A stretch of DNA of 64,000 bases from Octopus sinensis (Eukaryota): contig NC_042997.1 of the NCBI RefSeq assembly GCF_006345805.1, positions 92,876,001-92,940,000 of the forward strand, in the 5' to 3' direction. The translations under genes were made by a program, and so were the position numbers. Positions 15,266-63,451 of the stretch are shown here, piece by piece (the stretch's first letter is position 1; every line of letters starts with the position of its first letter). The notes beneath the pieces are model-generated. The model searched no databases. It saw nothing but the letters and a program-made list of their open reading frames with translations, and was not told the DNA's origin.

Positions 15266-15934
15266 ATTAGTATATCATTAGATATACTAGCATACTCTTG
15301 TTATCAAAGACGCCTACAATTATTTTATTAATGATACAAAATGGCGCATCAACACAACGGGAGAAACCATTGATAAATGTCAGCAACCTAGTAAGTGTAT
15401 GTATAAACACAGAATTGATACACTTGAAGAATCAGATACGATTCTAAGGTTTCGTCCAAATGATACACCTGCGTGTGTGTATGTGTGTGTGTGTGTGTGT
15501 GTGTGTGTGTGTGTGTGTGTGTGTGTGTGTGTGTGTAGATAGATAGACAAATAAATAGATAGACAGACAGACAGATAAATAGATAGATACATTTAAATGT
15601 ATATAGCATATGTGCATGCACACACACATACACACTCATTCATGCACACATATACGTTTATATGTATATAAATTACTTGGTAAAATTATTAATTAATTAA
15701 TTGATTAATTAATAAATTTTATCCTTTTAATATTACTGAAATTATAATTTACTCCCTGATCGAAAACTGCAGTTTCGGCGGGATTGCTCGTAACACACTC
15801 GTGGGTATTGAGGATAAATATTTGTTCACATTCGGCTGTATATTTTTGGAAGTGTTAGTTGAATATCGGTTATGTAATGCCACTTGATCGCGTACATATT
15901 TAATCCCAACGCTTTCATATTTATATTTCGAAAT

Positions 15935-16002
15935 GCTGCACTGATGATGAGAAATAAGTAAGTAAATATAACTTTACTTTAATCTCGAGACGCGTATGTA
16001 GC
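15935..16002 (+). ncRNA. Type I hammerhead ribozyme fold (core variant GAGA, probably impaired)
   Basis: gctgca-CTGATGA-tgaga...tctc-GAGAC-gc-GTA-tgtagc: stem I gctgca/tgtagc, stem II gaga/tctc, palindromic stem III. Confidence 0.6.
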
Positions 16003-16182
16003 CAATCTGAGTCGTGTGGATTCGTTATTTTTTCTTTTTGCCTACATAAAAAGTGCGTTACTGTCTGGGAGATCTGGTGGTAGAAAAGGCATTAGACTCC
16101 TATTTCTAAATTCTGTGCGTGGCGAATCAATTAACTGAGCCCTGATTATAATTATGTTTATAATTATAGAATATTTGTATAA

Positions 16183-16577
16183 TCTTTATATATAAAAGTG
16201 AGGTTGTGTGCTGTCTGTCTCCTACGATTTAGATTCCTAACTACTCCCACATTTTGCGGTGCAGTTTAACCAAAACCGGGTATCTTATAGTCGTGATTCA
16301 TATCAAGCCCTTCTGGGTATTAGCGCGCGTCTACGATGAGTCTACGATTTAAAAAAAATTACCATCAATTTTTCCCATTTTTAATGCATTTTTGGCATAT
16401 ATAAGGGAAGTAACTCTCTAAAAATTTATTATTAAATCTCAGAACGTAAAAAGCTACAGTAACACCTCCCCCTTTGTGGTTAGCCATATTGAGATGGCTA
16501 TTATACTTTACATCTCTAAAAATGCTTTTATAGTTATTTCCCTTACAAACCCGAGCAACGCCGGGCGATACTGCTAG
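16183..16577 (+). mobile_element. Non-autonomous Helitron
   Basis: 5' TC(tttatatataaaag), subterminal hairpin cccgagcaacgccggg, 3' CTAG, inserted between A and T without TSD; close copy at 51275-51672. Confidence 0.88.
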
Positions 16578-17224
16578 TTTTATCTAAAAAGGTTATTTTA
16601 ACGTACCGAACTACTTGGTAGAATTATTAATTACTAATTAATTAATTAATGTTACCCTTTTATTATTACTGAAATATATATTGTGTTGTATGTCTTGTAT
16701 TCTGTTTTTTTTTTCGTTGTTTGAAAAAAAGTTCGTTTCTATGTTTTTGTATTTAGGTTTTCGTTTCTCATTGTGTTCCACGCTTTTTGATGTCTTTTAC
16801 CCATATATGCATGTATATATACATATATATGTAGTTATGTACATATATGTATGTATATATGCATATATTTATATATTATTTATATTATATATATATATAT
16901 AATATATATATATATATATATATATATATATATATATATATATGTATGTATGTATGTATGTATGTATGTATGTATGTATTATGTATATGCCTCATTAAGG
17001 GATAATAATAGCCAATGAATTTACTGGTTTCTTACCTATTATTTATTTTGAATATTAGATTTAATATTAAAAAATAGGTAATTTAATGATTTAATTATTT
17101 TAATTAATTTTTGAAGTTTGAATCGAAACAGCTATTAGAGATTGTCTACTTTTGTAATTAATAAATATAATTATTAATTGATTTATCTCTATTTTCTTAT
17201 TTTTCATATATATATATATACATG

Positions 17225-17410
17225 TGTATATGTTTGCACCACTACCATCGCTTGACAACCGATGTTGGTGTGCTTATATCCCCGTAAGCGGTTCAGCAAA
17301 AGAGACCAATGGAATAAGTACTAGACTTACAAAGAATAAGTCCTGGGAGTCGATTTGTTCGACTAAAGGCGGCACTCCAGCATGGCCGCAGTCAAATTAC
17401 TGAAACAAAT
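17225..17410 (+). mobile_element. SINE family A, 3' half
   Basis: catcgcttgacaaccgatgttggtg...gactaaaggcggcactccagcatggccgcagtcaaattactgaaac. Confidence 0.85.
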
Positions 17411-59810: not shown

Positions 59811-60650
59811 GGTGAGCTGGTAGAATCGTTAGCACGCCGGGTGAAATGCTTAGCGGTATTTCGTCCGTTTACACGTTTTGAGTTCAAATTCCGCCGAGGT
59901 TGACTTTGCCTTTCGTTCTCTCGGGGTCGATAAATTAAGGACCAGTGAAACACCGGGGTAGATATAATCGACTATCCCCCTCCCCTAAAATGTCAGCTTT
60001 TGTGCCTATAGTAGAAAGGATTATTACATGCTATTGTATAAACGGTGAACCAGCAGAGTCGTTAGCACGCCGGAAAAAAGCAAAGCGACATTTCGTTCGT
60101 CTTCATGTTCTGAGTTCAAATTGCGCTCTTTGGTCGACTTTGTTTTCATCCTTTCGAGGTCGATAAAAGAAGTACCAATTTGAGTACTGAGTCGATGTAA
60201 TCAACTATTCCCTCCCCCAAATTTCAGTCAATTTTTACGTCTTGAATTGAAATTCCGCTGAGGCTGTCTTTGCCTTTCGAGGTCGATAAAAGAAGTACCA
60301 GTTCTGCGCTCTAGTGGATGTAATCAACGTGACCCCCCTCCCTCGAAATTGCTGATCTTGGTGCTTGAATTTGAAGCCAATATTTTGGGGACATTATACA
60401 CGGGTTTCATATATTTTCTCCTTTCACTGTTACTTGCTATTGCAAAGTGGCGAGCTTGTAGAATCGTTAGCGCACCGGGGAAAATGCTTAGTGGTATTTC
60501 GCAAGTCTTTGCGTTCTGAATTCAAATTCCACCGAGATCGATTTGGTCTTTTATCCTTTCGAGGTCGATAAAATAAGTACCAGTTGTGCACTGGGATCGA
60601 CTTATCCCTTCCACGAACCTGCTGGTCACGTGCCAAAATTTGAAATCAGT
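59811..60650 (+). mobile_element. Cluster of SINE family B copies
   Basis: Heads at about 59811, 60044 and 60449, plus an extra body at about 60235. Confidence 0.85.
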
Positions 60651-62600
60651 ATTACTTGCTACTGTCTTTATCATGTGTTGAATTGCTCTATTACTCAATA
60701 TTTGAGTTGCATTCATTTTCGTCTGACAGTTTGCTTTAAAAGGTGTAATGTCATTCGCTGTCTAGATCCGTCGCGGTCGACTTATTTTTATTAAAAGACT
60801 AAATGAACCATCTTGAAGTTCATCGAAACCTTCATGTGTTTATGTCCCAGATGACCCGACATATTGCTAGTCAATAATATTTCTTCATTAGCTCTTCACT
60901 AGATGTTCAAATCCATTATATTCTCCAAAGGAATAGAATAAACACACAGTTGTTGATTTTCTCCATCATCGTAGATTAAATATAAACTATCGGCAAACCG
61001 AGTTAATAACTTAGATTCGATTTCAGGTGTTATCCATTCCACTTACTTTTGAGGCAAAAGCTTGATCTTCACGATCCTTATGAACTTATGTAAACAAAGG
61101 AATTAGTAAGTGATCATTCAGTTTGCTCTATATAACAGCTAAATCTCCTTCAAATCATACCGTCTTTTTTAATTCTTTTTAAATGAAGAACTTACTTCGG
61201 ATAATGATGTCCTAAATATCCTCTGTTTGAAATTTGGACGGAATAGTCACGGTTAGAGCACATTTGATTTACTCTAGGTCTGCTCGGTCATAGATGCACG
61301 AGGCTCCAAAGAAAAATGACCGATAAATAAAAGGAAGTAATGTACGCTATTTATTGCACTGACGCAGGGGTTAAATAATATCCTTTTTTTGTTTACAAAT
61401 ATATAATTAAGTTGATAGACTGATAGAAAACAAAATGGCGAAAGTGAAAAAGCGAGAGAGAATGTAGATAAATACTTACATAATAAAGTGTATTTAGTTA
61501 AAATATTCTAAAGTTAAATGCAAATGTGCTTATGATAATTATTTAAACAGATACTTAGAAATCCTCTTAAATTTAAATCACTGGGTAGAGTAAATAATGA
61601 GCTTATTCATTCAAATTTATCAAATAGTTATTTAATCCAGGATTTAATATGAATGTACGTGGCTTCTAATCAAATGTACCAGGAATTCGTTTTCATATTC
61701 TTGCAATCTGAAATACCTGGTTCAGAATGACGATTTTAATTCGAGAGGAACACGTTGGATGGAGGATTGGCAGAATCATATAAACACCGAACAAAATACC
61801 CGAGGTATTTAACTATGGTCGTTTATGTTCTGAGTTCAAATCCTGCCAAGGTCAAATTTGTCTTTATCATTCTGGTCAAGATAGAATAAAACACCAATAA
61901 GTATTGAGTTCATTTAATGTTTTTGAAATGCATCTAACGTATATATATATTCCAAAGATAATCTGAATAAATTCTGCGATTCTGCTACAATATTCTATTT
62001 TCTAAACACCAATTATTGAAGGAGAGGATTGAAAAAAGTTCCGGCTTGTTTACATGCACCTAAAAATCTATTTTCCAAATATCATTAAAGATTCCTTAAT
62101 TATTATTATTAAACAGTAGATTAGATATGTAATCTAAGAATCATTAAATATTTCGTAAATATTATTATTAAATAGAAGACTAGATATATTGGTAAATATC
62201 TGATTTAGATATGTTCTCCAAAATTCTTTAAATATTTCTTTAATATTATTATTAATTAGAAAACTAGATATATTGGTAAATATCGGATTAGGTAAATACA
62301 TTACTGTAATATAGATATTAGGATGCACTGTATTTAATTTTTAGAAATATATCATATAAATACCTACATTTATATTAAATGGTCGTTTCTAGATATACAC
62401 ACACACACACACACATGCATATATATATATATATATATATATATATATATATTATATATATATATATATATATATATATAGCAATTAAGGACAACTACTA
62501 ATAAGGAAAACTTAACAAGAAATTGTCAGGTAGATAGCGTAAAAACCTCATAAGAGAAAAAATTTCGAAAATAATTATTTCTTATTGAACATATTAATCA

Positions 62601-62646
62601 GGCCTGCTGATGATTACGTAAGTATGAAATCACTGTGATACAGGTC
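62601..62646 (+). ncRNA. Minimal type I hammerhead ribozyme fold
   Basis: ggcctg-CTGATGA-ttacgtaagtat-GAAA-tcactgtga-TA-caggtc; U-U mismatch at the base of stem II; predicted cut after 62640. Confidence 0.7.
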
Positions 62647-63077
62647 TATATTTTTAATGTCTTACTTTGAAAAATTGCATTCGGTGGGATTAGTAATATT
62701 TTTGGTAGAAATGACTGATTGTCCCTCTTAGCGTTTGGCATGTATGTATAATGCCTTCTGGCATGTATGTATAATGCCCTCTATATATAAATTAATATGT
62801 TCAATAAGAAATAATTATTTTCGAAATTTTTTCTCTTATGAGGTTTTTACGCTATCTACCTGACAATTTCTTGTTAAGTTTTCCTTATTAAGTAGTTGTC
62901 CTTAATTGCTAAATTTTTATTCCGAAAAAACTTTTCCTCTCCCGAAATGCAATTCGTAAAAGTTTGCCATTATCCGGATGTAATATATGTAAACTCACCC
63001 ATGTGCTTCGTTCATGTTGATCAGTTAGCTGATCGGCTTAAGCGGGGCAGGGTCGTTGTTTATTTATAATACATTCA

Positions 63078-63123
63078 GGCCTGCTGATGATTACGTAAGT
63101 ATGAAATCACTGTGATACAGGTC
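63078..63123 (+). ncRNA. Minimal type I hammerhead ribozyme fold (second copy)
   Basis: Identical to 62601-62646; predicted cut after 63117. Confidence 0.7.
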
Positions 63124-63451
63124 TATATTTTTAAATGTCTTACTTTGAAAAATTGCATTCGGTGGGATTAGTAATATTTTTGGTAGAAATGACTGATTGT
63201 CCCTCTTAGCGTTTGGCATGTATGTATAATGCCTTCTGGCATGTATGTATAATGCCTTCTGGCATGTATGTATAATGCCCTCTATATATAAATTATATAT
63301 ATATATATATATATATATATATATATATATATATATCAATACTCGTTAATTTATTATTTCAGTTAATAGAAATAAAGTATATTCTACCTTAATACATAAA
63401 ATTCTGATATAAGCATAATATTGCATTTTAAACATTTAATATATATATTAA

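Follow-up and report, generated by a model that had tools for sequence, protein, structure and literature searches.

Two families of hammerhead-bearing tandem repeats at microsatellites in Octopus sinensis, likely new members of the metazoan retrozymes

In a 64,000-nucleotide stretch of the Octopus sinensis genome (contig NC_042997.1, positions 92,876,001 to 92,940,000; hereafter the window), four loci carry short non-coding repeats, each unit of which contains one type I hammerhead ribozyme motif. The repeats form two families: family A, with copies at 15.7, 38.5 and 41.9 kb (A15, A38 and A41), and family B, with copies at 41.2 kb on the minus strand and at 62.5 kb (B41 and B62). Judging from their sequence, A and B are likely new members of the known metazoan retrozymes. 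We favor, with a probability of roughly 0.65, the view that both are non-LTR retrozymes (LTR, long terminal repeat), whose multimeric transcripts would cleave themselves and circularise before being copied into microsatellites by the enzyme of a Penelope-like element (PLE). This identification draws on units with the sequence features of retrozymes, on copies that lack those of an autonomous PLE, and on an insertion layout of PLE type. The original prediction for this DNA had been a single family with six hammerheads at these four loci.

Both strands of the window were scanned for the full type I core (CUGANGA / GAAA / UH, with three helices and helix I open), using 100 block-wise dinucleotide shuffles as a control. 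Five motifs with a helix I of at least 6 base pairs (bp) were observed against a shuffle mean of 0.02, and none of the 100 shuffles reached five. A relaxed scan, which allowed one core change and required a palindromic helix III, returned seven motifs in the window against a mean of 0.025 and a maximum of 1 in 40 shuffles, its sole addition being the motif at 15935-16002. All seven motifs lie at equivalent positions of homologous units. They represent five independent folds (A15, A38, A41, B41 and B62), as two pairs are near-identical tandem copies (585 of 590 and 184 of 186 bases identical). The six plus-strand folds originally predicted all exist, five of them with a full core, and the stem pairs quoted for them are correct, but a seventh motif had been overlooked on the minus strand (41499-41440).

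The first A38 hammerhead (38674-38772, plus strand) has a full core, a 6-bp helix I, a long helix II arm and an 8-nucleotide palindromic helix III strand, with a predicted cut after 38766; the same hammerhead recurs at 39265-39364 (plus strand, predicted cut after 39358). The A41 motif (41928-42012, plus strand, predicted cut after 42006) combines a full core and a 6-bp helix I with a 6-nucleotide palindromic helix III strand. In the A15 motif (15935-16002, plus strand, predicted cut after 15996), a 6-bp helix I and a 6-nucleotide palindromic helix III strand are accompanied by a 4-bp helix II after a bulged base, and the core carries an A14G change (GAGA instead of GAAA), so that this hammerhead is probably decayed and likely impaired. 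The catalytic core, said to be kept at all loci, is thus full in six of the seven motifs but altered in this one. In family B, the B41 motif (41499-41440, minus strand, predicted cut after 41445 on that strand) has a full core, a 5-bp helix I, a U-U at the base of helix II and a 10-nucleotide palindromic helix III strand. The first B62 motif (62600-62647, plus strand, predicted cut after 62640) has a full core, a 7-bp helix I, a 3-bp helix II with a U-U at its base and a helix III strand that is palindromic around one central base; an identical copy is found at 63077-63124 (plus strand, predicted cut after 63117).

Might these be chance folds in AT-rich satellite DNA or, for the tandems, an assembly artefact? 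The genome is rich in simple repeats, the A38 units differ mainly by small indels, and no hammerhead model appears among the 107 Rfam matches at E values up to 1, which are otherwise microsatellite or hairpin noise. The Rfam models were probably defeated by the long helix II arms and the palindromic helix III. Set against this are seven motifs where 0.025 are expected, their equivalent places in homologous units, and a tandem joint that recurs in three of four independent public runs (see below); we regard this explanation as refuted and its probability as negligible.

As stems pair by construction of the scan, the control for pairing is provided by the shuffle counts and by the equivalent placement of the motifs in homologous units. 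In family A, where the evidence for homology comes from beyond the ribozyme, all 18 helix I cells are paired, and four of the six positions have changed on both sides. In family B, the first five helix I pairs differ on both sides, yet pair in both copies; the sixth pair is mismatched in B41, where the register is uncertain. Cores and helices persist while subfamily units are 50-67% identical. The proposed selection on ribozyme structure is supported. The helix III strands are perfect palindromes in four of the five independent folds, the fifth having one central unpaired base, and the helix III self-duplexes have predicted energies of -7.5 to -10.1 kcal/mol, compared with +0.8 to +6.0 kcal/mol for the forced monomer hairpin in the three cases tested. 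Such palindromic helices III are described as the architecture of hammerheads that cleave as dimers (PMC4209133; PMC6765202).

The division into two families is based on local alignments. A41 aligns with A15 (z score of 25) and with A38 (z of 27; 25-28 overall), the direct alignment of A15 with A38 being weak (z about 4.5), and B41 aligns with B62 (z of 29). No A-B pair exceeds a z of 4 in local alignment, and the single family originally proposed is not supported as such. A targeted A-B test was borderline (global z of 2.1-2.7, local z of 1.4-2.3). The best common block, near the usual 3' end, was matched by 3/300, 2/300 and 15/300 shuffles in three of five profile tests, and no match was obtained in the other two. 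Phased at the ribozyme, the two families appear colinear by eye. These borderline alignment and profile statistics do not establish A and B as one family, and we treat them as two, for which a distant kinship is possible and at most suggested by the sequences. The sequence blocks reported as shared between loci are real: the gagatct-gtag-ctatttctaaa pattern has three exact matches against none in 100 shuffles, and the 15-kb copy departs from it. The two motif groups described earlier may be one block near the usual 3' end. Similarly, the reported link between the 41- and 62-kb loci is genuine and corresponds to family B, but the 41-kb locus also contains a family A copy. Profile searches found no additional A or B copy in the window beyond the four loci, and scans with family A patterns gave no match in viral contigs and none in metagenome contigs.

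Units measure about 520-590 bases in family A and about 480-500 in family B (477-592 overall), with a GC content of 0.31-0.35. Their longest stop-free frame spans 77 amino acids, and no Pfam match was found on the units. In all five independent copies, the tail of a unit leads to the head of the next one, without an open reading frame (ORF) in between. Tandems occur at four of four loci and inversions at two of four; two consecutive hammerheads are present in A38 (spacing 591) and B62 (spacing 477), and one in each of A15, A41 and B41. An autonomous PLE was rejected as a candidate because units join tail to head and no reverse transcriptase (RT) or GIY-YIG ORF lies between the repeats. With this arrangement in five of five copies, the loci are not plain fragments of an autonomous Penelope element, the case that the original prediction had named as a possible refutation.

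The young A38 copy (38472-39650, plus strand), which belongs to a highly repeated subfamily, consists of two head-to-tail units with a period of 591 (585 of 590 bases identical, most differences being small indels), separated by a 3-base joint (39060-39062, plus strand) and followed on the right by a (TA)n tract (39651-39784). A15 (15671-16682, plus strand) is an old, decayed copy that amounts to about 1.15 units, its two ends being a duplication of 76 bases (15671-15746 and 16609-16680, plus strand; 64 of 77 positions identical). It is interrupted by an unrelated 395-base insert (16183-16577, plus strand), which has TC...hairpin-CTAG ends between A and T and which we take to be Helitron-like. 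A second copy of this insert, also non-autonomous and Helitron-like, was observed at 51261-51673 on the minus strand (389 of 416 bases identical).

The 41-kb locus is an A/B composite, in the order (TA)n, B41 on the minus strand, a head-to-head B arm, A41 and (CA)30. B41 (41197-41785, minus strand) comprises 1.19 units with a period of 496; its repeated portion occupies 41195-41289 and 41691-41785 (minus strand; 86 of 95 bases identical), and its 3' end abuts a short (TA)n tract. The inverted arm is 144 bases long (41786-41929, plus strand), with 132 of 144 bases identical to 41602-41745. A41 (41928-42421, plus strand; about 0.85 unit) joins this arm where hammerhead helix I begins, extends to (CA)30 and lacks one hairpin arm of the unit, the one between a long predicted helix (described below) and helix I. 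This composite may have arisen by a template switch or by two successive insertions at one microsatellite. At 62 kb the order is (TA)31, an inverted 118-base B piece, 1.46 B units and (TA)27. The inverted piece (62481-62598, minus strand) is the reverse complement of 62791-62909, and its 3' end abuts (TA)31; B62 (62599-63295, plus strand, period 477) starts one base before hammerhead helix I, and its right end is an internal TA-rich site leading into (TA)27. The two B62 units differ in length within a single insertion, because a 23-base internal repeat occurs twice in the first unit (62736-62782) and three times in the second (63214-63283).

A microsatellite (a (YR)6+ run) is found no more than 10 bases from seven of the eight outer ends, compared with 2.2% of other positions. 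The proposed microsatellite preference is supported, although one end adjoins (CA)n rather than (TA)n and the 15-kb right end adjoins no microsatellite. Target-site duplications, if any, are masked by the microsatellite flanks. The left flanks of A38 (38290-38470) and of the 41-kb composite (40970-41196) are TA-rich tails of abundant repeats that resemble short interspersed nuclear elements (SINEs), so at these two loci the retrozymes were inserted into SINE tails. None of the 11 end phases computed falls at a cut site, which is what copying from a circle or a multimer would give. Four sense 3' ends group together at about 250-290 bases past the cut, while another three lie elsewhere. In the 62-kb locus, the inverted piece starts at the point where the sense part stops, with an overlap of 4 bases in unit coordinates, a layout that resembles the twin priming of L1.

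Sense copies at 41928 and 62599 begin within 2 bases of hammerhead helix I. Such starts account for two of the seven inner or 5' ends and were noticed post hoc, so they provide a lead only; the foot of helix I is possibly a stall site for the reverse transcriptase. The only part missing from A41 is the hairpin arm separating the long helix from helix I, which hints at stalling there. At each of the two family B loci, one breakpoint (41785 and 62791, respectively) falls in a shared AT-rich stretch about 150 bases past the cut, the two being some 7 alignment columns apart. In the Drosophila virilis Penelope, the foot of helix I is described as holding a 3' splice site (PMC4209133), and B62 has a fitting CAG/G at this place. 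We rejected this as a general feature, as A15 and B41 lack an AG at that place and the joint keeps its CAG. Elsewhere in the window, positions 17719-18079 hold a near-perfect palindrome of 330 bases, flanked by (TA)n on either side. Its arms share 98% identity and are separated by hardly any loop, some 30 additional bases are present on the left only, and it has no hammerhead. This layout matches inverted-plus-tail PLE insertions and may represent a third family using the same machinery.

Could another kind of retroelement have moved these units? The window was screened through 190 ORFs (20 long ones, and 170 flanking ones of at least 48 amino acids; the latter come from a list of 192, of which 9 were already among the 20 and 13, mostly simple-repeat frames, were left out), which yielded only matches to transposases of DNA elements and to RTs of the long interspersed nuclear element (LINE) type, plus two sub-threshold chance matches. 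The adjacent Penelope RT or GIY-YIG ORFs that the original prediction had suggested looking for were not found in the 64-kb window. The Pfam RVT_1 matches (19082-19279, 31327-32148 and 52745-53659) are presumably LINE-type fragments. Mobilisation by a LINE of the RTE or CR1 type is one way to read these fragments, the more so as the 62-kb layout is reminiscent of L1 twin priming. LINEs are indeed named as an alternative in PMC7229834. We nevertheless consider a LINE partner improbable: in self-comparison the units have no tail or 3' end in common with the LINE pieces of the window, more-than-unit tandems, inverted arms and (TA)n bias are PLE features (PMC8557442), and vertebrate retrozymes are reported to co-occur with PLEs and to resemble their terminal repeats (bioRxiv 10.64898/2026.07.22.740005).

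The window also contains broken LINE-type RT remnants (18350-19693, 29180-32151, 52745-53662 and 56631-58172) and minus-strand DNA transposase remnants (43697-44107 and 47250-47738; Pfam DDE_1 and DDE_Tnp_1_7). A direct 510-base duplication (24919-26033; 99.8% identity), bounded by (TA)n(CA)n and containing a SINE-like repeat, is either recent or an assembly artefact. Finally, a palindromic stretch at 58772-59182 (58951-59097 being 76% self-complementary) has open frames on both strands and no Pfam match.

Structure is also predicted beyond the ribozyme. Compared with 25 shuffles each, unit folds reach z scores of -5.0 (A38 circle), -5.2 (B62 circle) and -3.6 (B41 period), the antisense values being -2.6, -4.6 and -4.1, respectively; A41 reaches -6.4 (none of 100 shuffles as good), and the decayed A15 piece at 15738-16181 only -1.8. 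In all five copies, a long-range helix is predicted between the stretch after the ribozyme and the stretch after the usual DNA end. Only 2, 0, 0, 0 and 0 of 300 shuffles were as good, and the own partner was the best in four of five rows. Between A38 and A41, 8 of 62 consensus pairs have changed on both sides, and a script alignment of family B gives 23 long-range pairs, with 46 of 46 cells paired and five pairs double-sided. The three-way alignment of family A totals 25 double-sided pairs out of 94 (column-shuffle z of -8.2), a figure that is indicative only, as the last third is misaligned.

Strong rod-like folding with compensatory changes along much of the unit, in subfamilies only 50-67% identical, is what one might expect of viroid-like circular RNAs replicating from RNA to RNA and occasionally written into DNA, and RNA-level steps have been floated for such motifs (PMC7229834; PMC4209133). 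This explanation appears very improbable to us: no unit contains a hammerhead of opposite polarity, the one minus-strand motif belonging to an inverted copy, and the very many DNA copies suffice to explain the diversity.

Abundance was assessed in public runs. At least half of the A38-unit words were recovered in 20 of 24 rows among the matches listed, under four coded organism labels and with no run recorded as RNA, and contigs matching the A38 unit number 5945 in run X1 and 2320 in run X2. Such counts indicate a highly repeated family, without giving a copy number. The high abundance inferred from four loci in 64 kb is therefore supported by contig matches, for the 38-kb subfamily only. The A38 tail-to-head joint recurs in three of four runs (X2, X9 and X10, but not among the X1 contigs listed), with the same three-base spacer or variants of it. 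As it recurs in independent runs, the A38 tandem is neither an assembly artefact nor a one-off template jump. One X9/X10 contig spans both the unit joint and the cut site; the RNA nature of these runs is a guess, and the contig has no bearing on expression or circles. A single X1 contig with an inversion joint 2 bases before the cut site was not used. Some variants in these runs are compatible with the fold: A39354G, which reaches 41% of the summed depth in X1 and 4% in X2, preserves the helix III palindrome through G-U pairs, A39268G keeps helix I, and A39275T falls at a free core position.

Under the retrozyme reading, transcription would run through at least two units, and two hammerheads would join through their palindromic helix III strands into a dimer that cuts itself, setting free a monomer of 477-592 nucleotides. 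This monomer would be closed by a host ligase and fold as a branched rod, one end of which carries the ribozyme. An enzyme of Penelope type would then nick (TA)n or (CA)n DNA, prime mostly near the AT-rich hairpins of the opposite end, and copy 0.85 to 2 times round the circle, passing over the ligated cut site. Head-to-head insertions would result from priming on both target strands, and the A/B composite from reuse of one site. We hold a more specific version only tentatively, as possible though on the unlikely side. In this version, a Penelope enzyme rolled on ribozyme-made circles primes on both strands, stalls at the foot of helix I, a three-way junction, and switched from an A to a B circle at 41 kb in the course of a single insertion, the whole 500-600-base unit being a recognised, covarying rod. 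Its stalling component is based on the two inverted-to-sense joints next to a ribozyme, both within 2 bases of the helix I foot. If true, these loci would provide invertebrate, sequence-level footprints of PLEs mobilising retrozymes, and PLE systems in vitro would gain a small substrate.

Several observations weigh against the retrozyme reading. Cleavage, transcripts and circles are deduced here from sequence, and eight of nine predicted Xenopus retrozyme dimers were reported as uncleaved in vitro (bioRxiv 10.64898/2026.07.22.740005). The covariation comes from three plus two independent sequences, too few for a formal test. Both the hammerhead and the long helix are missing from the two-sequence consensus of family B, computed in the other permutation (folding term of -1.9), only 81 of 95 long-range cells are paired in the three-way A alignment, and the B antisense strands fold about as well as the sense strands. 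Among the minor variants listed from the public runs are U4C, in the core, and one at the outer helix I pair for which the listed rows (34 others excluded) contain no matching change in the partner base. Microsatellite borders partly guided the placement of the element ends, and independent loci number only four. Neither Pfam on the 190 ORFs nor a six-frame motif scan gave a Penelope RT or GIY-YIG signal in the window. Lastly, an uncut linear multimer accounts for the ends equally well as a circle.

This last point leads to another explanation, in which A and B are terminal-repeat-only PLE derivatives copied from uncut linear multimeric RNA, the hammerhead being slow or merely inherited and no circles being formed. 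The cut site is uninterrupted in all seven hammerheads and coincides with no end, the long-range helix could also form in linear RNA, and PLE hammerheads are described as weak in vitro even as dimers (PMC4209133). We find this explanation doubtful, and grant it the weight it has because of the eight of nine Xenopus dimers that did not cleave (bioRxiv 10.64898/2026.07.22.740005). Cores and helices have been kept here despite unit divergence to 50-67% identity, and the folds are canonical (6-bp helix I, helix III palindrome) rather than of the minimal PLE type (PMC4209133). Moreover, canonical hammerheads of coral, mussel and axolotl are reported to cleave and to give circles (PMC7229834). We retain self-cleaving, circularising retrozymes as our preferred reading.

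The class itself is published, so the novelty implied by the original prediction was too high. Metazoan non-LTR retrozymes were defined, mussel included, by Cervera and de la Pena (2020, PMC7229834), who regard PLEs as strong candidates or likely movers. Li, Clavereau and Pollet (2026, bioRxiv 10.64898/2026.07.22.740005) report units of 51-972 bases and tie them to PLE terminal repeats, in vertebrates only. We found no description of an octopus retrozyme in the literature, where motif lists in published supplements could include cephalopods. The words 'ribozyme' and 'hammerhead' have no occurrence in the text and one supplement of a 2026 Octopus vulgaris repeat study, which counts 190 Penelope-like families covering 6.83% of the genome (PMC13282606); A and B may be present in its repeat library under a Penelope-like label. 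As retrozymes are already known, the gain is mainly one of annotation, namely abundant ribozyme-bearing repeats overlooked by Rfam models. In addition, the young A38 dimer is suited to a cleavage and circularisation assay, and the covarying helix outside the ribozyme hints at what the enzyme may recognise.

By description, A and B share non-coding tandem or dispersed organisation and dimer-type type I hammerheads with newt satellite 2 and the SINE-like repeats of Schistosoma (PMC7229834; PMC6765202), but their units are longer and lie in dispersed short arrays in microsatellites. For PLEs, Craig et al. (2021, PMC8557442) describe partial tandem and inverted copies, tails and a bias towards (TA)n, and Cervera and de la Pena (2014, PMC4209133) describe hammerhead pairs that lie on opposite strands at distances of 100-700 bases. 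As in their pseudo-LTRs (PMC4209133; PMC8557442), we observe type I hammerheads with a palindromic helix III, partial tandems, an inverted 5'-truncated copy, (TA)n bias and opposite-strand hammerheads a few hundred bases apart. Unlike endonuclease-positive PLEs, A and B have no RT/GIY-YIG ORF, join tail to head in five of five copies, and have canonical-sized rather than minimal hammerheads. Naiads, the PLE clade noted for (TA)n, are described as lacking canonical hammerheads (PMC4209133; PMC8557442), which makes a partner of the Neptune, Nematis or Penelope type likelier.

With the metazoan retrozymes, as described in the sources cited above, A and B have several features in common: non-coding tandem units with one type I hammerhead each, a GC content under 50%, a highly self-paired predicted monomer that leaves the ribozyme fold free, monomers and dimers, and a high copy number (for the A38 unit only). 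In family B, the U-U with which helix II starts at its base is of the axolotl HHR_Amex2 type, and the palindromic loop 3 is of the amphibian dimer type. Units of 477-592 bases exceed the 150-450 of PMC7229834 and fall within the 51-972 of the 2026 preprint, while family A differs by its helix II arm of 30-60 bases. We found no mention of microsatellite targeting, head-to-head inverted insertions or a two-family composite among the retrozyme features in these sources. The octopus loci thus bear on how retrozymes move, by presenting footprints of PLE type on ORF-less hammerhead units.

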